Numbered from the stretch's first letter, positions 15,524-63,709 are shown. The stretch is DNA of 64,000 nt from Sphingorhabdus sp. (GCF_044338195.1 NZ_JBIIMC010000008.1:10592-74591); one strand, 5' to 3'. The notes: a model not told the origin generated them from the sequence alone. Numbers and translations are program-made.

Positions 15524-16096
15524 TCAATCCATATGCTTGATGCCGACGCGCAGATAATCCCAGCCGGTAATCATCGTCAGCGCCGCGGCGATCCACAGCA
15601 GCGCCAGTGCGGCTTGCTTCAGCAATATCCAATCAGGCAAAGCGCCCGCCAAAATGACGCCGCCAAGCGAAACAAGTTGAAACGTCGTCTTCCATTTGGC
15701 GAGTTTCGAAACAGGCACAGAAATCTGCAGGCCAGCCAAAAATTCGCGCAGGCCCGATACGATCATTTCACGCAGTAAAATGATGAGGGCCGCAATGACA
15801 TGCCAACCGTCGACATCGCGCGTGAACACCAGCATCAAAATGACTGCGGCGACCATGATCTTATCGGCGATGGGATCAAGGAAAACGCCCAATTTCGATA
15901 CTGTTCCCTGCGCCCGCGCAAGATAGCCATCGAAATAATCGGTAATCCCCATCAGGCAGTACAATATGAATGCGAAGCCATAATCCAGTGGCACCGGCTG
16001 AATGCCTATCTGCTTGGCGCCGGGCCACAGCAAAAAGACGAGGATGGGCACAGCAAGAATGCGCGACAAGGTCAGGAGGTTGGGTAAGCTAAGCAT
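15524..16096 (-). CDS. pgsA: CDP-diacylglycerol-glycerol-3-phosphate 3-phosphatidyltransferase
   Basis: LPNLLTLSR; TDYFDGYLAR...GVFLDPIADK CDP-alcohol motif; pgsA-moaD-moaE order. Confidence 0.93.
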   Translation of the reverse strand: MLSLPNLLTLSRILAVPILVFLLWPGAKQIGIQPVPLDYGFAFILYCLMGITDYFDGYLARAQGTVSKLGVFLDPIADKIMVAAVILMLVFTRDVDGWHVIAALIILLREMIVSGLREFLAGLQISVPVSKLAKWKTTFQLVSLGGVILAGALPDWILLKQAALALLWIAAALTMITGWDYLRVGIKHMD

Positions 16097-16213
16097 CCTA
16101 TCACAATAGCGCGATGTGCCAGCAAAATCACGCGGCTATTTCACCGTCACATGAAATGCGCTTTGCCATGATAGGGCTGGAACGCTAAGGCTCCGATACC
16201 GTCCGCATGGGAA

Positions 16214-53998: not shown

Positions 53999-55150
53999 TC
54001 AAAGCTGCTTTTCGTAGATGCGGTACACCTTGTTGATTTTGCCGTTAATCGCCTCACCCACCGATCGCATCGGGCCATTATCGTCAAGGACCCAGCCGAA
54101 TTCACCGCGGCTCGCGCCAAATTGGCTGGTGGACGCGTCGCGAATGAGCGAAACCATCATGAACGCCAATTGGCTTGCCATGCGGGTCGACTGCAGCTTT
54201 TTCATCACGCCCATCAACGGCACGCGCATCGTGCGGACCTTTGGCGCGCGCAGCCACCACAACAGCTTCGCCCAGTTGAACGGGAACAGGCTGCCGCCGA
54301 ATTGACCGATTTTTTCGTTGATGTCGGGCCATGTCATCATGAAGGCGACGGGTTCCCCATCGACCTCCGCAATGCGGATCAGGTCGTTAAAAACGATGGG
54401 TTTTAACTGCTTTCCGGTATGCGCGACTTCGGCATCGGTGATCGGCACAAATCCCCAATTCCCGCTCCACGCGTCGTTCAATATGGACAGGATTAACGCG
54501 GCTTCCGCGTCAAAATTATCCTTGTTCACCTTGCGAATGACAATGCGTTCATTGCGCTCGCCCGACGCGACAATGCGTTCCACCAGCGGCGGAAACGGTA
54601 CATCAATCGGGATTTGATAGGTGTAGAGGTCTTTGATGCCGGCATAGCCCGCCGCCTCAATCCACCCGCCATAGGCTGCGTTATGATAGCCCATCAGTAC
54701 GGTGGATGGATGGTCATGGCCATCGATCAACACGCCCGGTTCTTCCCAGATGGACAGGCTCAGCGGCCCAAGCGCGCGCGCCATGTTTTTGCTGCGCAGC
54801 CAATCTTCAGCCGTCGAAATCAGCAGTTTTCCGATGGCTTCATCTTCCGCCTCAAAAAATCCCCAATTGCCGACGCCGGGGCCCATGCCTTGCTCTGGCG
54901 GCTGTTTCAGCGCGAGAAAATCCAAATGCGCGGATATCCGGCCAACAACTTTCCCGTCCTTTTCCGCGAGAAAAAGCTGCGCCTCACCATGTTCGAACCA
55001 TGGGTTCTTGCCGGGCGTAATGGTCGCCATCACATCGCTTTTCAACGGCGGAACCCAGTTGGGATCATGCGCATAAAGCCGGAACGGCAGGTCAATAAAG
55101 GCGCGTTTGTCTGCCTTGGTTACAACCGGCCGAATGATGATGTCTGTCAT
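53999..55150 (-). CDS. GNAT-fold N-acyltransferase, probable bacterial ceramide synthase (bCerS)
   Basis: Tandem GNAT pattern (VGRISA, NWGFFEA, WNGNWGF-like WSGNWGFVP, WVLDDNGPM); next to lptG/lptF and spt, as in Caulobacter. Confidence 0.78.
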   Translation of the reverse strand: MTDIIIRPVVTKADKRAFIDLPFRLYAHDPNWVPPLKSDVMATITPGKNPWFEHGEAQLFLAEKDGKVVGRISAHLDFLALKQPPEQGMGPGVGNWGFFEAEDEAIGKLLISTAEDWLRSKNMARALGPLSLSIWEEPGVLIDGHDHPSTVLMGYHNAAYGGWIEAAGYAGIKDLYTYQIPIDVPFPPLVERIVASGERNERIVIRKVNKDNFDAEAALILSILNDAWSGNWGFVPITDAEVAHTGKQLKPIVFNDLIRIAEVDGEPVAFMMTWPDINEKIGQFGGSLFPFNWAKLLWWLRAPKVRTMRVPLMGVMKKLQSTRMASQLAFMMVSLIRDASTSQFGASRGEFGWVLDDNGPMRSVGEAINGKINKVYRIYEKQL

Positions 55151-55191
55151 AGTGAATTCCCGAAACGCATTTTTATGTGCCCAAAGCCGCT

Positions 55192-56280
55192 TTATTCTTC
55201 GGTGCGGATAAGCACCGTTTCGCCGATCAGCAAAAACAGCAAAAACGGCCCCCATGCGGCAATCCAGGGCGGATAAGCGCCCAGATTGCCCATCGCCAAG
55301 GCAAAGTTATCGGCCACGAAATAGGTAAAGCCAAGCGCCATGCCCAGCACCGCGCGCACGAACAAAGCGCCCGAGCGGGCAAGGCCAAAGGCGGCGACCG
55401 CAGCCAGCAAGGGCATTAACAAGGTCGACAAAGGCCCTGCCAGCTTGTGCCACAATATGCCTTCCAGATTGTCGGTGCGGCGACCGGCAGCGCGCAGATC
55501 GTCAATGGCGCGCATCAATGGCAAGAAGGCAAGGCTGTCTCCGTCAACCTTGATGACGTTGAACCGAGCGGGCGTGATGCCTTTGCCGATCACAAGATTG
55601 GTCACCTGCTTCTGTTCGGTGGTCGCAACGTCAAATGTCTCCGCATTTTCAAGCAGCCATGCATTGTCCACATAACGGGCATTTGGCGCCGTAATCACCT
55701 GACGCAAACCGCCATTGGCGCGCAAATAGACGCGGACATTATCGAGGACGATATTGTCGCCCGATCCCAGCACCCTGCCTGCATTGATAAGGTCGCCGCC
55801 TTCGCGGACCCACACATTGTTGCGCGGGTCACTATCGGGGGCTATCGCGCCATATTCGGCATCCTTCCAAACTTTAAGCTTTTGCGTATTCGGCGCGACG
55901 ACAACGTCGTTAAACACGAACGAAATAAGCGCGACGCCCAAGCTGGCGACAAACATGGGCGCAAGAATTTGGTGCGCGGACAATCCCGCCGCCTTCATCG
56001 CCACCACTTCGCTGTTCTGGCTGAGCGTCGCGAAGGTGATTAACGTCCCCAACAGCACCGAAAAGGGCAGAAAACGGGCAATAATTTGCGGTGCGCGCAT
56101 CGTTACATAGCGCAACACATCGCCCTGATCATTTCCGGGGACCGCCAATATCTTGCCACTTTCACCCAGCAGATCGAGCGTCATCAACACCAGCACAAGC
56201 ATCATCAACACCGCAAAGCTGCGCACGACAAACAGCCGGGCCATGTACATTGTAATGTTGCGCGAGGGGAAGAAATGCAT
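55192..56280 (-). CDS. lptG: LptG-family permease
   Basis: PFSVLLGTL...SEVVAMKAAGLS, WVREG, LGAYPPWIAAWGP. Confidence 0.9.
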   Translation of the reverse strand: MHFFPSRNITMYMARLFVVRSFAVLMMLVLVLMTLDLLGESGKILAVPGNDQGDVLRYVTMRAPQIIARFLPFSVLLGTLITFATLSQNSEVVAMKAAGLSAHQILAPMFVASLGVALISFVFNDVVVAPNTQKLKVWKDAEYGAIAPDSDPRNNVWVREGGDLINAGRVLGSGDNIVLDNVRVYLRANGGLRQVITAPNARYVDNAWLLENAETFDVATTEQKQVTNLVIGKGITPARFNVIKVDGDSLAFLPLMRAIDDLRAAGRRTDNLEGILWHKLAGPLSTLLMPLLAAVAAFGLARSGALFVRAVLGMALGFTYFVADNFALAMGNLGAYPPWIAAWGPFLLFLLIGETVLIRTEE

Positions 56281-56283
56281 GGG

Positions 56284-57522
56284 TTATGACCCCTCTTGCG
56301 GCACAGGCATGCCAATGGTGGCCAGCCGCGATTTTCGGCCCCAGCGGAACAGTTTCTTGAACCATTTACCGGCTTTGGTCGCGAAGACCTCCAGTGCGCC
56401 GATGGGCTGACCACCGGGCACATGCGCGATCACATGATACATCCAGATGATGAGCGCGGCGAACAGCACAAATGGCACCCACAATGCGATAAACGGATCA
56501 ACAATGCCCATGGCACCGACGCTTTCGGCATATTCATTTATCTTATGATAGGTCACGACCATCACGATCGATAAAAAGACGCCAAGCGCGGATGTCGACC
56601 GTTTCGGCGGTATCGCCAGCGCCAATGCCAGCAATGGCAGCAGGAGCATCATCGCCACCTCAACAAGGCGGAAATGGAAATTAGCCCACGCACTGTCGCG
56701 TTCCGACGCAGGCCTTTGCGCATCATTTCCAATCTGCACCAATTCTGTAATCAAATACTCGCGGTCTTTGCCGCCACGCGACCGAAAACTTTCAATTTGC
56801 GGAAGCGGGATGGGGACGTCATGACTGGTGAAACTGAGCACGCGCGGTGATTTATAATTGGGCGCGTCATGCACCAGCGTACCTTTTTCTAAGCGCAGCA
56901 ATATCGTGTCCGGATCGTCGGTACGCAAAAACTGCCCCTTTTCAGCCGTAACGGCGATGGACTGTCCATTGTTGCTTTGCGCGTACACAAACATGCCAGA
57001 CAGGGCGTTGCCATTGTTCCGGCTTTCATCGATGCGCATGGTCAAATTTTTGCCAACATTGTTGAATTCGCCGACCCGGACCTTTGCACCAAAGGCGCCT
57101 GAACGCAGTTCGAAGCGGAGCTCTTCATAGAGATAGCGCGCGCTGGGCTGAACAAATCCGACAATAGCAAAATTGACCGTAGCCAGCGCGATGGCCAGCA
57201 GGAATGGGACGCGCAACAGCCGAAGATAGCTCATCCCCACCGCGCGGAAAATGTCGAGTTCGGACGATGTCGCGAGCTTGCGGAACGCCAGCAATATACC
57301 CAGCAACAGCCCGATTGGGATGCCGAGCGATAGATATTCGGGTATCAGATTTGCGAGCATGCGCCAGACCACGCTGACCGGCCCGCCCTCTGCGGCGACG
57401 AAGTCAAACAGGGTCAACATCTTGTCCAGCAGCAGCAATGATGCCGCGATTGCGAGCGTCGCCAGCAGCGGCAACATCACAAGCCGGAAGATATATCGGT
57501 CGGTGGCAGTAAGAAATTTCAA
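56284..57522 (-). CDS. lptF: LptF-family permease
   Basis: DRYIFR, PEYLSLGIP, SSELDIFRAVG, LAIPPKRS. Confidence 0.9.
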   Translation of the reverse strand: MKFLTATDRYIFRLVMLPLLATLAIAASLLLLDKMLTLFDFVAAEGGPVSVVWRMLANLIPEYLSLGIPIGLLLGILLAFRKLATSSELDIFRAVGMSYLRLLRVPFLLAIALATVNFAIVGFVQPSARYLYEELRFELRSGAFGAKVRVGEFNNVGKNLTMRIDESRNNGNALSGMFVYAQSNNGQSIAVTAEKGQFLRTDDPDTILLRLEKGTLVHDAPNYKSPRVLSFTSHDVPIPLPQIESFRSRGGKDREYLITELVQIGNDAQRPASERDSAWANFHFRLVEVAMMLLLPLLALALAIPPKRSTSALGVFLSIVMVVTYHKINEYAESVGAMGIVDPFIALWVPFVLFAALIIWMYHVIAHVPGGQPIGALEVFATKAGKWFKKLFRWGRKSRLATIGMPVPQEGS

Positions 57523-57649
57523 CTTATGGTCGCCCTGTCACCCTAATTTGGCCGCAAACTGACCCGATAGACGCTTACAGGTTCAGGGGCAATATATCGA
57601 TGGTATCGTTGTGAAGTGATACCGGATTTGCTGTTCCAGGAGTTTTGAG

Positions 57650-58126
57650 ATGCATATATATTCGGTTCTTATATCCGCCACAGCATTGGCGCTCCTATCG
57701 GGCGCCGCTGCCGCAAGCGAGGAAATAAGCAATGATTTGTCGCGCTGCGCCGCGGGCAAGGGCCCCGCTGTGCTGGTGAACGTGCAGGGCGTGAAGGAAG
57801 CGAGAGGCAATGTTCGCGTGCAATCTTATGTCGCAACGCCCGGCACTTGGCTGGCCAAAGGCCGCTGGCTGCACCGCATCGAAAGCCGCGCAAGCGCAGG
57901 AAATATGAGCTTTTGCCTGCCCGTCCCTTCCGAAGGGAAATATGGCATTGCTGTGCGCCATGACCGGAATGGAAATGGTAAAACGGACTTCACGCAGGAT
58001 GGGGGCGGCTTTTCCAATAACCCCAGCGTGAGCATATTGAATTTGGGCAAGCCGTCGGTCAGCAAAGTCGCATTCGACGTAGGCCCCGGTGTCACGCGGA
58101 TCACCATCAACCTGAAATATATGTGA
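57650..58126 (+). CDS. DUF2141 family exported protein
   Basis: Signal peptide; YGIAVRHDRNGNGK...GGGFSNNP. Confidence 0.85.
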   Translation: MHIYSVLISATALALLSGAAAASEEISNDLSRCAAGKGPAVLVNVQGVKEARGNVRVQSYVATPGTWLAKGRWLHRIESRASAGNMSFCLPVPSEGKYGIAVRHDRNGNGKTDFTQDGGGFSNNPSVSILNLGKPSVSKVAFDVGPGVTRITINLKYM

Positions 58127-58136
58127 AGGTAATGAT

Positions 58137-59108
58137 TTGGCTTTAGTCGCGCTTCTTTCGAACCCCAATTCAACCGGCAACAGGTCGTTGTTGCCGGCGG
58201 TTCGAAACTATTGCGCGAAAAATCCCGATATATTCCATTACGAAGTCGAAGAGATTGGCCAGATCGCCAAAGCGCTGGAAATGATTGCCCGCGTGAAGCC
58301 AAAGGTGCTCGTGATCAATGGCGGCGATGGCACCGTGCAGTCCGCTTTGACCGAACTATATCATGGTGGACATTTTGAAGGGTCCCCGCCGCCCGTCGCG
58401 GTGCTGCCCAATGGTAAGACCAACCTGATTGCGCTCGATTTGGGCGCTGAAGGTGACCCGTTGGAGGCGCTGGCGCGTATCATCGACGTCGCAAAGGGTG
58501 ATCTTTCCGAACATATCGTTGTCCGCGAACTGATTGCGTTAAGCGATGGCAGCGAAGGCGCGCGTCCGGTTCTGGGCATGTTCTTGGGCGGCGCGGGCCT
58601 TGCCGAAACGATCCTATATTGCCGCCACAAAATCTATCCATTGGGATTGCCCAATGGCCTAAGCCATTTCCTGACATTCATCGCCGTTATGTTTTCAGCA
58701 TTTGTTCGGGTGAAGGCAAGTTTCCTGCCGAAACGATCAAAGCCCGTCAGCATATCCTTTATCCGCAATGGCGAATTGCAGGGCACATTTTCGATCCTGA
58801 TCGTCACGACGCTGGAAAAGCTATTGCTTGGTGGACAGGCCGGCAAAACCAAACAGCGTGGTTTGATGAAATTTATGGCCGTTGACCAAACGCCATGGGC
58901 GATGCTGAAAATGATCGCGGCATCATTGCGCGGCAAATTGGGACAGACGCCCACAAGCGGTGTCCATTTCCAGCAAGGCGATGTCATCCGCATTGATAGC
59001 GAACGAAGCAGCGTCGTCTTGGATGGCGAAGTGTTCGAGGCGTATCGCGGTAGCCCGATCGTGCTTCGGTCAACGCCGCCTGTCCCTTTCCTGAAAATCG
59101 CTGCTTAA
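58137..59108 (+). CDS. Diacylglycerol/sphingosine kinase family protein, probable ceramide kinase (CpgB-like)
   Basis: LSNPNS, INGGDGT, LPNGKTNLIA, LDGE; located in the spt cluster. Confidence 0.8.
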   Translation: MALVALLSNPNSTGNRSLLPAVRNYCAKNPDIFHYEVEEIGQIAKALEMIARVKPKVLVINGGDGTVQSALTELYHGGHFEGSPPPVAVLPNGKTNLIALDLGAEGDPLEALARIIDVAKGDLSEHIVVRELIALSDGSEGARPVLGMFLGGAGLAETILYCRHKIYPLGLPNGLSHFLTFIAVMFSAFVRVKASFLPKRSKPVSISFIRNGELQGTFSILIVTTLEKLLLGGQAGKTKQRGLMKFMAVDQTPWAMLKMIAASLRGKLGQTPTSGVHFQQGDVIRIDSERSSVVLDGEVFEAYRGSPIVLRSTPPVPFLKIAA

Positions 59109-59140
59109 CAAGCGGCAACGGAAACGGTTAAGGCGCACAG

Positions 59141-60064
59141 ATGCTTTCGCTGACCCAGCTTGTGGCCGAGGAATTGGCCATACCCGCGCAACAGGGCGCG
59201 AGCGAATTCGCGGCGCATATCGCCGCGCAATATGGCCCGGCAGCGCGCGCTGTTCTATTCTACGGATCGTGCCTGCGGTCGGAACAGCTAGAGGGCGAAA
59301 TGCTCGACTTCTACCTCATCGTGTCCGATTACCAAGCCGCTTATGGACGCGGTTGGCTCGCCACATGGAACCGCCGCCTGCCGCCCAATGTATTTCCGTT
59401 TCAACATGGCAATCTGATTGCAAAGGTGGCTATTTTAAGCGAAGCGGACTTTCACCTCCTCAACCGCCCGGCGGCATCGGCGGTGTCGGTTTGGGCCCGT
59501 TTTGCCCAGCCATCGCGCCTCGTCTGGTGCGCGGATGAAGACGCACGGCAGTCTGCCATTCTCGCGATATCGGGTGCGGCCCCGACTTTGCTGAATGCGG
59601 CACTGGCATTTGCAGAACGCGAAGCTGATGTGCTCGACCTTTGGCAGGCGGGATTCCACATGACCTATGGCGCGGAGCTCCGCGCGGAACGCAAGGACCG
59701 GCCATCGTCGGTGATTGCGTTTGACCCCAATCGCTACGTCCGCTTTGGCCAAGCGGCATTGCAGTGCACGGCGATCGCCAATGACGTGCGCGGCGACAAA
59801 ATAGTTATCTTGCCCGACCCCGATGGCCACATCGTTCAAGAAAAACGCCGTTGGCCTGCACTGCGTCGACGTGGGAAGTTGCTGACCGTTGCGCGGCTGG
59901 CAAAGGCGGCGTTCACCTATGCCGGCGGCATTGATTATCTGGCGTGGAAGATAAACCGCCACGCCGGCACGCAAATCAACATACGCCCGTGGCAGCGCAA
60001 ATGGCCCCTGATCGCGGCGTTGTTTCTGGTGCCCAAGCTTTTGGCAAAGGGCGCCGTGCGTTAA
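59141..60064 (+). CDS. Nucleotidyltransferase-fold protein, Tam41-like (CpgC-like)
   Basis: LFYGS...MLDFYLIV and K.AILSE.DF...WARFAQP echo the Tam41 motifs; lies between the kinase and spt. Confidence 0.6.
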   Translation: MLSLTQLVAEELAIPAQQGASEFAAHIAAQYGPAARAVLFYGSCLRSEQLEGEMLDFYLIVSDYQAAYGRGWLATWNRRLPPNVFPFQHGNLIAKVAILSEADFHLLNRPAASAVSVWARFAQPSRLVWCADEDARQSAILAISGAAPTLLNAALAFAEREADVLDLWQAGFHMTYGAELRAERKDRPSSVIAFDPNRYVRFGQAALQCTAIANDVRGDKIVILPDPDGHIVQEKRRWPALRRRGKLLTVARLAKAAFTYAGGIDYLAWKINRHAGTQINIRPWQRKWPLIAALFLVPKLLAKGAVR

Positions 60065-60102
60065 AGCCTATTTTTACGCGGCACGAAAAGCGCGCGTCGC
60101 GG

Positions 60103-61302
60103 TCAAATAATCCCGACGGCCTTGCCCGCGCGTTCGAAGCGGCTGAGGATATCGGCAACCTGTTCGCTGCTATGTTCGGCGCATAAAGAACAGCGCAGCA
60201 ATGTCATGCCAGCGGGCGTCGCGGGCGGACGGGCGAGGTTTACATATAGGCCGTTTTCAAGAAGCGCAGCCCACATCATCGCGCCTTTTTCCAAATCGGG
60301 CATGATCACCGCGATGATCGCGCTTTGCGCATCGGGCGTGCCGAGTTTGAAACCAAGATCGCGCAGGCCCTGATGCAGATTTCTGGAGTTTTCCCACAAA
60401 TGCGCACGCTTGTTGCCATTGTGCATCAACTTGCGAATACTCGCCGCCGAACATGCGACGACCGCTGGTGGCAATGACGCCGTGAACACATAAGGGCGGC
60501 AGACAAGCCGCATGATTTCAAATTTCGGATGGTTCGAAACGCAGAAGCCACCGACGGTTCCGACCGATTTGGAGAACGTACCGATGACGAAATCGACATC
60601 GTCCAACACGCCCTGCTCTTCGGCCACGCCGCGGCCATTTTTGCCGATAAAGCCCATCGAATGCGCTTCGTCGACAAGGATCATGGCGCCGGCTTCCTTA
60701 GAAACGCGGATCATTTCCTTCAGCGGCGCAACATCGCCCAGCATCGAATAGACACCTTCAAGCACGACAAGCTTGCCCGCGTCGGCGGGCAGGCGCTTCA
60801 GTCGCTTTTCCAGCGCCTCGACGTCATTATGGCGGAAGGCCACGATTTCGGCATCGCCCATTTTGCAGCCATCATAGATCGACGCATGGCTGTCGATATC
60901 GAGAATGATATAATCGCCCTTGCCCGCAATCGTGCTGATGATGCCAAGGTTCGCCTGATAGCCCGTGGAAAAGACCATCGCATGGTCCATTCCGTAAAAT
61001 TCCTTCAACGCGTCTTCGCATTCCTTATGGCCCTGAAATGTGCCGTTCAGAACGCGGCTGCCGGTCGTGCCAGCGCCAAATTCGTCCAAAGCCTGCTTGC
61101 CCGCGGCGATGACATCATCGTCAAAGGTCATGCCCATATAATTATAGGTGCCAAGCAAGATGGTTTCCTTGCCATTCACGACAGCAACGGTCGGCGATTT
61201 CACCTCTTCCATCACAAGGCTGAACGGGTCTTTTACGCCCGTGGCCAGCAAGCCTTCACGTTGCCCAATCAGGTCATCAAATTTGGAGAATAAGTCAGTC
61301 AT
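60103..61302 (-). CDS. spt: Serine palmitoyltransferase
   Basis: GTYNYMG, GSRVLNGT, DEAHSMG, GTFSKS (PLP Lys); adjacent ACP gene. Confidence 0.9.
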   Translation of the reverse strand: MTDLFSKFDDLIGQREGLLATGVKDPFSLVMEEVKSPTVAVVNGKETILLGTYNYMGMTFDDDVIAAGKQALDEFGAGTTGSRVLNGTFQGHKECEDALKEFYGMDHAMVFSTGYQANLGIISTIAGKGDYIILDIDSHASIYDGCKMGDAEIVAFRHNDVEALEKRLKRLPADAGKLVVLEGVYSMLGDVAPLKEMIRVSKEAGAMILVDEAHSMGFIGKNGRGVAEEQGVLDDVDFVIGTFSKSVGTVGGFCVSNHPKFEIMRLVCRPYVFTASLPPAVVACSAASIRKLMHNGNKRAHLWENSRNLHQGLRDLGFKLGTPDAQSAIIAVIMPDLEKGAMMWAALLENGLYVNLARPPATPAGMTLLRCSLCAEHSSEQVADILSRFERAGKAVGII

Positions 61303-61337
61303 GCACGTCTTCCGTTAAAATCAGGCGTCCGTTTGAA

Positions 61338-61583
61338 TTAGGCTGCGGTCAGCTTGGTAACCGCGTCGACCAGTTGGCCGACATTTTCGATTTCTGCCTG
61401 TAAATTCATGCTGATGATGATGTCAAAGCTGTCTTCGACTTCAGCAACAAAATCCATGACGGTCAGGCTGTCCCATTCCAAATCACCTGCAAAAGTGGTG
61501 GTCTCGCCAACCTCGACACCTTTTTTGTTAAATGGCTCAATCAGGCCCTTTAGGCGATCAAACATTTCGCTGCGGTCGGTCAT
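61338..61583 (-). CDS. Acyl carrier protein dedicated to Spt
   Basis: DLEWDSL phosphopantetheine Ser; acidic 81 aa. Confidence 0.9.
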   Translation of the reverse strand: MTDRSEMFDRLKGLIEPFNKKGVEVGETTTFAGDLEWDSLTVMDFVAEVEDSFDIIISMNLQAEIENVGQLVDAVTKLTAA

Positions 61584-61673
61584 ATGTACATCCTCAAATT
61601 ATGTGACGGGCAATGCGCCATATGGGCGCGCTATGGCAAGCGAATAAGGCAGTATGAGGGCAAAGCCATGCGC

Positions 61674-62582
61674 CTACATCCACCCTTGCGCGCGATACCA
61701 GCTTGCGGTGTCTTTCAACCCCTTGGGCGTTGCTATTTCTGGCGTCCAAAGCTGGGGCCCTGGCGCAGCATCGCGATTGATGGTCCAGTCGGGGTGCGCC
61801 AGATAATTGGCGCGGTCGGGCGTCAGCTTCGCCTTTGCACCGCGAACCGTTCGGTCGGCCCATCCGGCAAATTTCAACAGAAACGCAGGCGCGTGCACCG
61901 TCGTGATATCGCGCCCGACCGCAGCGCCAATGGCCTTGGCAAAGCCGGCGTGGCTCCACCCGCCTGCCGTTCCGTCATCTGCCTCAAACACGCATTTCGA
62001 GACATCGTCCGCCGACAGCAAAGTCACCAGCAAGCGGGCGAGGTCGTCGACATGAATGACCGAGACCCTGCCCCGCGGCGGCAACAATGCCCATCCCTTG
62101 GCGGCGATGCGGAACATATCGAACATTTCGGTGTCGCCGGGGCCGTACACACCGGGCGGACGAATGACGGTCCAGTCGAGCGATGATGTGCGCACAAGCG
62201 CTTCTGCCGTGGCCTTGCTCGCGCCATACATCGAAAGCTCCGGATGGCGCGCAGCAAGCGAGGAGACGCAAACAAAACGGCTGATGCCAGCCAATTGGGC
62301 AGCGGCGAGGATATGGGCTGTGCCGGTCACATTCCCGCTCTCGAAGCCAGCCGCGTCGGGCGCGTTAACGACGCCTGCGACATGCAAAACGGCATCGGCG
62401 CCTTTGCACAATTCGGTGAGGCTTGCCGTATCGCTTAGGCTGCCATGAACCCAACTGACTCCGGCTTTTTTGTGCTGGTCCCGCCGCGTCAGCGCGCGGA
62501 CATGCCAACCAGCGGCAATCAACCGATCCAGCGTGATCCGTCCGACAAAACCCGTCGCTCCGGTTAGCGCGACTGTTTTCAC
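61674..62582 (-). CDS. Atypical SDR/epimerase, probable ceramide reductase (CerR-like)
   Basis: TGATGFVG, YGASK, RPPGVYGPGD; directly upstream of acp-spt. Confidence 0.75.
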   Translation of the reverse strand: MKTVALTGATGFVGRITLDRLIAAGWHVRALTRRDQHKKAGVSWVHGSLSDTASLTELCKGADAVLHVAGVVNAPDAAGFESGNVTGTAHILAAAQLAGISRFVCVSSLAARHPELSMYGASKATAEALVRTSSLDWTVIRPPGVYGPGDTEMFDMFRIAAKGWALLPPRGRVSVIHVDDLARLLVTLLSADDVSKCVFEADDGTAGGWSHAGFAKAIGAAVGRDITTVHAPAFLLKFAGWADRTVRGAKAKLTPDRANYLAHPDWTINRDAAPGPQLWTPEIATPKGLKDTASWYRAQGWM

Positions 62583-63709
62583 AAAAGGACCAACTGGTCG
62601 CGGTGGACAAGTACGGAGCGGGGCACGGTGCCCAAAATATCCGCCAATTCACTAGAACGATGGCCGCAAATGCGGGCAGCATCGACCGCATCATATTCGC
62701 AAAGGCCGCGCGCGACCGCAACGCCGTCATCATCACTGATGTCGATGACGTCGCCGCGTTTAAACTCACCCTCCACCGACAAGGCGCCAGCGGGCAACAA
62801 GCTACTGCCCGATATGAGCGCTTGGATGGCGCCAGCATCGATGCGGATGCGGCCCTTGACCGTCAGCCGACCGCCCAACCAGCTCTTGCGCGCGGAACCG
62901 CCGTCGCGCGGTGCAAAAAAGGTCGAAGGCCCACCCGCTTCAAGTGCGGCAAGCGGGTGATCGCGAAGGCCGGAGGCGATAACCAGTCCGATGCCTGCGC
63001 GGGTTGCAATATCGGCGGCATCCAGCTTGGACGCCATACCGCCCGACCCCATGCCAGAGGATGAACCCTCCGCCACCATGACGCGGACGCGGCCGTCAAT
63101 TTTTTCGATACTCCGCAACAATGTCGCACCCGGCAAATGTGGCGCGCGGTCGAAAAGGCCATCGACATCCGACAGCAAAATCACCCCGCTGGCGCCAGCC
63201 GCCTGCGCAACGCGTGCGGCCAACCGGTCATTGTCGCCAAAGCGGATTTCTTCGGTGGCGACGCTGTCATTTTCATTGATGACGGGAACGGCCCCTGCAC
63301 CCAACAGACGATCCAGCGTCGCGGCAATGTTCAAATAGCGGCGGCGATCCTCCAGATCATCCAGCGTCACGAGCATTTGCGCCGCAGCAAGCGACTGCGC
63401 GTCGAGCAGCTCTGCCCAGATGCCCGACAGCACAATTTGCCCAACAGATGCCGCAGCCTGCGCATCGGCGAGGCTGCTGCGGCCGCCTTTTTCAAAACCC
63501 AGACGGCGCGCACCCAATGCAATCGCGCCGGAGGTGACGATAACGATGCGCTGCCCGGCCTTGTGCCGCGCGCCGATATCCGCAACGAGCGTTTCCAACC
63601 ATTGCCGCCGCACATTCCCGTCAGGCTGCACCAGCAGCGACGATCCGACCTTGACCACCAACAGCGGGCAAGATGTCGGCAAGAATGCGGCGTTCAGATC
63701 GGCGACCAT
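62579..63709 (-). CDS. proB: Glutamate 5-kinase
   Basis: VVKVGSS, VTSGA, PVINEND, FGDNDRL, GSGGMASK, PUA domain. Confidence 0.96.
   Translation of the reverse strand: MVADLNAAFLPTSCPLLVVKVGSSLLVQPDGNVRRQWLETLVADIGARHKAGQRIVIVTSGAIALGARRLGFEKGGRSSLADAQAAASVGQIVLSGIWAELLDAQSLAAAQMLVTLDDLEDRRRYLNIAATLDRLLGAGAVPVINENDSVATEEIRFGDNDRLAARVAQAAGASGVILLSDVDGLFDRAPHLPGATLLRSIEKIDGRVRVMVAEGSSSGMGSGGMASKLDAADIATRAGIGLVIASGLRDHPLAALEAGGPSTFFAPRDGGSARKSWLGGRLTVKGRIRIDAGAIQALISGSSLLPAGALSVEGEFKRGDVIDISDDDGVAVARGLCEYDAVDAARICGHRSSELADILGTVPRSVLVHRDQLVLL

Follow-up and report, generated by a model that had tools for sequence, protein, structure and literature searches.

The window analysed here is a 64,000-nucleotide stretch of a Sphingorhabdus sp. 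genome (2.20 Mb, 98.8% complete; the window is contig C52 in our numbering), and our subject is a block of nine sphingolipid genes at positions 53999-62582. The proteins most closely related to those of this genome bear the name Sphingorhabdus. We consider it probable, at roughly 0.8, that this block corresponds, in the form usual for Sphingomonadales, to the Caulobacter sphingolipid locus CC_1154-CC_1164, with a largely ordinary layout. By sequence and fold comparison, its lipid kinase and its 307-amino-acid (aa) protein are orthologues of the ceramide kinase CpgB and of the Tam41-like protein CpgC. The cluster itself adds one more organism to the published picture. What is new here is the association of an unlinked nucleotidyltransferase-HAD-TagF-like gene module with cpgC, together with an overlooked DUF2141 gene in the block.

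All nine genes that an earlier note had listed from the sequence were recovered in place:

53999-55150, minus strand: bCerS, a GNAT-like ceramide synthase of the CC_1154 type; weak PF00583 match, reading frame open to 55255
55192-56280, minus strand: lptG-type permease; TIGR04408, 309 bits (cut-off 240)
56284-57522, minus strand: lptF-type permease that pairs with lptG; TIGR04407, 234.7 bits (cut-off 230)
57650-58126, plus strand: DUF2141 protein with a signal peptide; PF09912, E 2.7e-22
58137-59108, plus strand: DAGK_cat kinase, predicted cpgB orthologue; PF00781, E 4.5e-14, GGDG motif
59141-60064, plus strand: 307-aa Tam41-like protein, predicted cpgC orthologue by family profile and fold
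60103-61302, minus strand: spt, serine palmitoyltransferase; NF047603, 793.5 bits (cut-off 670)
61338-61583, minus strand: dedicated acyl carrier protein of the acpR type; PF00550, place next to spt conserved
61674-62582, minus strand: cerR-type NAD(P)-dependent reductase, an extended short-chain dehydrogenase/reductase; PF13460 and PF01370, place beside acp and spt conserved

The note's further statement, that the block holds no cytidine diphosphate (CDP)-alcohol phosphotransferase, acyl-CoA/ACP synthetase or glycosyltransferase, holds for these nine genes: we found no CDP-alcohol phosphotransferase, AMP-binding synthetase or glycosyltransferase among them, and the gaps between genes (at most 128 nt) leave no space for another. 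DUF2141, cpgB and cpgC form an operon in which the DUF2141 gene comes first. A scan for promoters and terminators returned sites no more frequently than expected by chance.

The kinase and the Tam41-like protein

In Caulobacter, the ceramide kinase is CC_1160 (CpgB; PMC10331486), and CC_1161 (CpgC) is needed to convert ceramide 1-phosphate to ceramide phosphoglycerate (CPG); cpgB and cpgC are the genes on which, according to genetics, addition of the first phosphoglycerate depends (PMC9393093, PMC11324152). The second phosphoglycerate, which yields CPG2, needs CC_1159 (CpgA, a PF01066 CDP-alcohol phosphotransferase), CC_1153 and CC_1152 (CpgD), the last being a CTP:phosphoglycerate cytidylyltransferase (PMC9393093; PMC11324152; PMC12275187).

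Our reference for orthology was the Pseudomonas luteola cluster, which is mapped gene by gene to Caulobacter in the S2F Table of PMC11324152. The P. luteola loci that we used (L012 and L013) keep the published order FOB45_16290-16340, and the 90%-identity cluster of their CpgC contains QEU29244.1. The P. luteola proteins were run by phmmer against every open reading frame (ORF) of the genome. The best match of CpgB is the window kinase (93 bits), the only such gene in the genome; its sequence INGGDGTV contains the GGDG motif, and the CxxxCxxC motif is absent, as expected for cpgB. The best match of CpgC is the 307-aa protein (165 bits), and cpgC lies directly downstream of cpgB in all 20 of the loci that we sampled across the order. 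The FOB45_16305-type CerS likewise finds the window bCerS first (263 bits). In this way a comparison with Caulobacter genes, of the kind that the earlier note had proposed, was made through P. luteola: CerS, CpgB and CpgC match window genes, and CpgA and CpgD have no true match.

The relationship of the 307-aa protein to Tam41 is visible only by family profile and fold comparison. Searched alone, the protein matches nothing in Pfam, even at E 10, and nothing in a PDB sequence search. A 61-sequence profile of its family matches Tam41 of S. pombe (6ig2, E 3.9e-6) and of Firmicutes (7ecd), and 11 of the 61 relatives match PF09139 (best E 3.3e-6). With an AlphaFold (AF2) model of the protein (pLDDT 95) as query, the top five Foldseek matches in the PDB are all Tam41 structures (7ecd, 6ig4 and 6ig2; E 1.6e-9 to 4.5e-8, TM scores 0.47-0.61). 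The window protein thus shares its fold with the Tam41/Mmp37 CDP-diacylglycerol synthases over nearly its full length, covering both the nucleotidyltransferase domain and the helical/winged-helix domain, at about 13% identity. Ten residues are invariant in its family (Y41, G42, D56, K95, R120, Q123, P124, E179, R181 and E183), and these align with the Tam41 motifs YGS...D, KY, RFQKP and D-I-R...E (in general form YGS...D, K, R-F-x-x-P and E/D-x-R...E). The two differ in substrate, which is phosphatidate for Tam41 and, on genetic grounds, ceramide 1-phosphate for CpgC.

The earlier note had seen a kinase and a protein of nucleotidyltransferase fold in the block, and both are borne out, as a ceramide kinase and a Tam41-like nucleotidyltransferase; the fold was correctly read, and the identity is that of CpgC, not of a CpgD-like enzyme. 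Its description of the block as lacking a head-group transferase is right in that no cpgA-type gene is present, and overlooks cpgB and cpgC, on which the first phosphoglycerate depends in Caulobacter.

These genes suggest the following pathway. Spt, AcpR, CerR and bCerS, together with the acyl-ACP synthetase AasR, would make (dihydro)ceramide. The note had counted an acyl-ACP synthetase as missing, which is correct for the block; an AasR orthologue lies unlinked at C19:25070-26809 (552 bits, E 7.7e-166, with the P. luteola query against all ORFs). CpgB would phosphorylate ceramide to ceramide 1-phosphate, an activity demonstrated for the Caulobacter enzyme. The most likely activity of CpgC, as predicted from its family and fold, is activation of ceramide 1-phosphate with a nucleoside triphosphate to give a nucleoside diphosphate (NDP)-ceramide, which would then be condensed with glycerate or phosphoglycerate to form CPG or a close analogue. 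It is chemically reasonable that a nucleotide-activated ceramide intermediate is finished by another enzyme. The note had arrived at ceramide 1-phosphate or CDP-ceramide, and the presence of the kinase and Tam41-like genes agrees with this. The idea is not new, since an NDP-activated ceramide and "another so-far unknown gene" acting after CC_1161 are hypothesised in the conclusions of PMC11324152.

Alternatively, the kinase and the Tam41-like protein could act on glycerolipids, converting diacylglycerol to phosphatidate and then to CDP-diacylglycerol. CpgB does phosphorylate diacylglycerol in vitro (PMC10331486), and Tam41 makes CDP-diacylglycerol (PMC7018664). We regard this as very improbable. 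A canonical CdsA bearing the CDS signature is encoded in the genome, and the housekeeping CDP-diacylglycerol synthase is therefore not cpgC; lptFG and spt enclose the gene pair in 17 of 20 loci; and deletion of cpgB in Caulobacter removes ceramide phosphate and leaves phosphatidate unchanged.

Within the ceramide synthesis genes, N-terminal alignment with relatives places the conserved start of bCerS at the ATG at 55150 (383 aa), which is probably the true start rather than 55255. In three sampled loci, a histidine-box membrane protein (HELTH, HSLHH, HALHH) that resembles a fatty-acid desaturase or hydroxylase is encoded between cerS and lptG (L022 14260-15375, L023 4135-5328, L024 4270-5409); it is not found at that place in the window. 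At the other end of the block, proB (glutamate 5-kinase; TIGR01027, 354 bits) occupies window positions 62579-63709 on the minus strand, shares 4 nt with the start of cerR and runs in the same direction as cerR-acp-spt; it also adjoins cerR in the relatives L020, L022 and L028.

A conserved locus without cpgA and cpgD

The 20 loci around cpgC came from genomes across the order, with CpgC identities from 34% to 94%. Seventeen share one arrangement, in which [cerS..lptG lptF] is divergent from [DUF2141-kinase-cpgC], which in turn converges on [spt acp (cerR, AasR)]; the layout of the block is thus not a matter of chance. The position of lptF is kept in 19 of the 20. The common arrangement agrees with Swit_3897-3908 and ZMO1390-1400 in the S2 Table of PMC11324152, that is, with the gene order of Sphingomonas wittichii RW1 and Zymomonas mobilis ZM4, though Z. 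mobilis has its ceramide genes less tightly packed than this genome.

The Caulobacter locus CC_1152-CC_1168 (spt, acpR, cerR, aasR, bcerS, lptF2/G2/C2 and cpgA-D) is responsible for CPG and CPG2. Of its genes, spt, acpR, cerR, bcerS, lptF2, lptG2, cpgB and cpgC have orthologues that are gathered here in one block. The aasR gene and genes like CC_1153 (nucleotidyltransferase), CC_1166 (flippase), CC_1167 (TagF family) and lptC lie elsewhere in this genome, whereas cpgA (CC_1159), cpgD (CC_1152), the HIT gene (CC_1157) and CC_1158 are absent. The position that cpgA holds in Caulobacter and P. luteola is occupied here by the DUF2141 gene. We rejected DUF2141 as a cpgA equivalent, CC_1159 being a PF01066 protein.

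Orthologues of cpgA and cpgD elsewhere in the genome, which the earlier note had named as grounds for giving up its proposal, were searched for genome-wide and none was found. Against all ORFs, P. luteola CpgA matches only a PssA-like gene (20 bits), CpgD matches only a MurU-like gene (29 bits), and the HIT query has no match. A six-frame search for cpgA in this genome and three others of the genus also gave no match at E 1e-8. The MurU-like nucleotidyltransferase, on contig C26, was rejected as cpgD, its best PDB match being MurU itself (E 2.7e-29). The genome has three PF01066 genes, one PgsA-like, one PssA-like and one of a third, 200-aa type, and none is of the cpgA type of about 390 aa. 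Because cpgA and cpgD are absent, CPG2 is not expected by the Caulobacter route, and a second phosphoglycerate would not be added in the known way.

Two of the CDP-alcohol phosphotransferase genes call for separate mention. A PgsA-like phosphatidyltransferase gene (PF01066, 107 bits) lies within the window at 15524-16135 on the minus strand, 38 kb from the sphingolipid block. The third type (C18:1612-2214; L003 1420-2022) encodes its 200 aa between a YceD-like gene and a gene for a pyridine-nucleotide disulphide oxidoreductase. As a general partner of CpgC it was rejected: among 151 genomes of the order it occurs in 22, is missing from most that carry cpgC and is present in two that do not.

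In the same 151 genomes, Spt is found in 146 (and in 130 of 130 of high quality), cpgC in 99 and true cpgA (above 190 bits) in 15, none of them in the genus of the window. Since 84 of the 99 cpgC-positive genomes have no cpgA, cpgB-cpgC without cpgA is the majority state. Ceramide lipids with a single phospho group may therefore be widespread in these bacteria, which lack lipopolysaccharide (LPS). The earlier note had proposed a phospho-sphingolipid not usually ascribed to sphingomonads. This part is not new, as such lipids were already predicted by Olea-Ozuna et al. (2024), CPG and CPG2 for S. wittichii and CPG only for Z. mobilis (PMC11324152, section 9 and S2 Table). Z. mobilis is in the same cpgA-less state as this genome, lacking CC_1159, CC_1157 and a true CC_1152.

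In some genera of the same family, DUF2141 genes accompany a divergent pair that resembles kinase-cpgC at about 35% identity and is not placed beside spt and lptFG (L036 in genome G074, L037 in genome G037); this pair may be a second subtype.

An unlinked module associated with cpgC

Genes that may act on the head group after CpgC lie outside the window. The region C39:31046-39792, a second locus related to sphingolipids, holds lptC-like, lptA-like and lptB genes and rpoN, followed by five genes:

C39:34630-35517: CC_1153-like nucleotidyltransferase; 119 bits to the CC_1153-like protein of P. luteola (phmmer)
contig C39: HAD phosphatase; PF12710
contig C39: TagF-like protein of the Glyphos_transf family; PF04464
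contig C39: flippase; Polysacc_synt
contig C39: esterase, last of the five genes after rpoN

The CC_1153-like nucleotidyltransferase is present in 84 of the 151 genomes, of which 83 carry cpgC; the exception is a genome only 64% complete. All 40 genomes with the TagF-like gene belong to the 99 that carry cpgC; the 52 without cpgC have no copy of it. The phylogenetic profile of the HAD gene is not clean, as a second paralogue exists. Sixteen further loci again bring together the nucleotidyltransferase, HAD, TagF-like and flippase genes. Module genes adjoin cpgB-cpgC in L042, L046, L047 and L048, and they adjoin cpgA, cpgD and the HIT gene in L048-L051. In two loci the nucleotidyltransferase and HAD domains are fused in one protein of 552-570 aa, encoded beside the TagF-like gene (L052 4347-6005 and L053 3617-5329, both on the minus strand).

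This content recalls the TagD/TagF logic of wall teichoic acid synthesis, in which a cytidylyltransferase works with a CDP-glycerol glycerophosphotransferase. In the C39 module a nucleotidyltransferase is accompanied by a Glyphos_transf-family protein and a flippase, and the paper on CpgD itself draws the analogy for CPG2. The systems differ in three ways: the C39 protein fits its family only marginally, a sphingolipid would serve as acceptor, and the module adds the HAD phosphatase, which some genomes encode as a fusion with the nucleotidyltransferase. The module is a concrete candidate for the unlinked transferase that the earlier note had called for. Judged by its association with cpgC, it probably supplies or adds further parts of the head group. 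In this way comparative genomics narrows the candidates for the step after CpgC to the CC_1153-like nucleotidyltransferase, the HAD phosphatase and the TagF-like protein. A more far-reaching reading, which we hold less likely than not, is that in sphingomonads without cpgA and cpgD the nucleotidyltransferase-HAD-TagF-like-flippase module completes the head group by extending ceramide phosphate with phospho-glycerate or phospho-glycerol in the manner of a teichoic acid, and that the product is exported by the sole LptFG pair with DUF2141 as a periplasmic accessory.

One could also envision that synthesis within the block stops at ceramide 1-phosphate or CDP-ceramide, and that an unlinked transferase makes a phospho-sphingolipid unlike CPG or CPG2, for example ceramide phosphoglycerol, or a phospho-polyol or phospho-glycerate extension of the teichoic acid kind built by the C39 module. 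We consider this possible, with the balance tilted against it. It is consistent with the absence of cpgA and cpgD, with the confinement of the TagF-like and nucleotidyltransferase genes to cpgC-positive genomes (bar the one incomplete genome, for the nucleotidyltransferase) and with the joining of module genes into cpg clusters in other genomes. A glucuronosyltransferase mutant of Z. mobilis is reported, in work cited in the S1 Text of PMC11324152, to accumulate ceramide-phospho-glycerol, and Olea-Ozuna et al. allow that a further enzyme may be needed after CC_1161 (PMC11324152). However, among the genes of the Caulobacter cluster only losses of cpgB and cpgC abolish CPG; the C18 CDP-alcohol phosphotransferase does not track cpgC; and the TagF-like gene is no general partner of CpgC, being missing from 59 of the cpgC-positive genomes. 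A profile search finds it in the same 40 of 99, and we rejected it as a universal condensing enzyme.

The reading that we prefer, a standard sphingolipid locus with the C39 module as a possible source of further head-group parts, has several points against it. We assessed orthology to Caulobacter by way of the published P. luteola orthologues instead of Caulobacter sequences themselves, and the identity of the window CpgB to its reference is low, as its 93 bits indicate. The TagF assignment is weak (PF04464, 22.9 bits, cut-off 22.1): a search of the PDB with the single sequence gave no match, and the two best PDB matches of a 12-sequence profile, the TagF-like polymerases Cps3D (E 0.0025) and TarL (E 0.0099), are both weak. 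The co-occurrence of the nucleotidyltransferase with cpgC (Fisher's test, 8e-25) is uncorrected for phylogeny. Caulobacter requires CC_1153 for CPG2 but can make CPG without it, which does not account for the tight coupling of its counterpart to cpgC in genomes that have no cpgA. Finally, Olea-Ozuna et al. judged the TagF-like CC_1167 "probably unrelated" (PMC11324152).

Export and the DUF2141 protein

No LpxC was found in the genome, which has a single LptF/LptG pair, the one embedded among the sphingolipid genes; on both counts this organism differs from Caulobacter. The LptF2/G2/C2 paralogues of Caulobacter are reported to be necessary for sphingolipid transport (bioRxiv 10.64898/2026.04.12.717747). 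As the sole pair in a genome without LpxC, LptF/LptG (LptG2-like) is presumably a sphingolipid exporter, and LPS as its cargo is not supported. Finished sphingolipids would thus probably leave through the organism's only LptF/LptG pair.

The anionic phospho-sphingolipid branch could be minor. In that case an unlinked GT4 glycosyltransferase would make the principal outer-membrane lipid, the classical glucuronosyl-ceramide, and this would be the chief cargo of LptFG. We give this even odds; it is compatible with the scheme proposed above and does not exclude it. The genome has six GT4-family genes at other places, LpxC is missing, and sphingomonads are known for the glycosphingolipid GSL-1, the genes for ceramide glucuronosyltransferase (Cer-GlcAT) in Z. 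mobilis and S. yanoikuyae being unlinked to spt (PMC13318209). The retention of DUF2141-cpgB-cpgC beside lptFG across the order, however, argues that the phospho-lipid is not negligible.

The DUF2141 gene stands beside kinase-cpgC in 19 of the 20 sampled loci and immediately upstream of the kinase in 17. Its protein has an invariant loop, HD-N-NG-D...DGGGFSNN; the predicted model (pLDDT 67) is a generic beta-sandwich that matches no PDB structure below E 1e-3. In Bacteroides, LptZ, which is associated with the Lpt machinery, has a C-terminal DUF2141 domain. The secreted DUF2141 protein of the block may similarly be a conserved accessory in sphingolipid export. The published tables omit the gene between cpgB and lptF (Swit_3904, ZMO1392), and PMC11324152 makes no mention of DUF2141; from the synteny described here, both loci are presumably DUF2141 genes. 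A conserved gene beside lptFG that is absent from the published gene tables may belong to sphingolipid transport. The only DUF2141 paralogue in the genome lies at C21:31456-31929 (36 bits), and a DUF2141 gene adjoining crtG has been noted in Sphingomonadales (PMC5989583).

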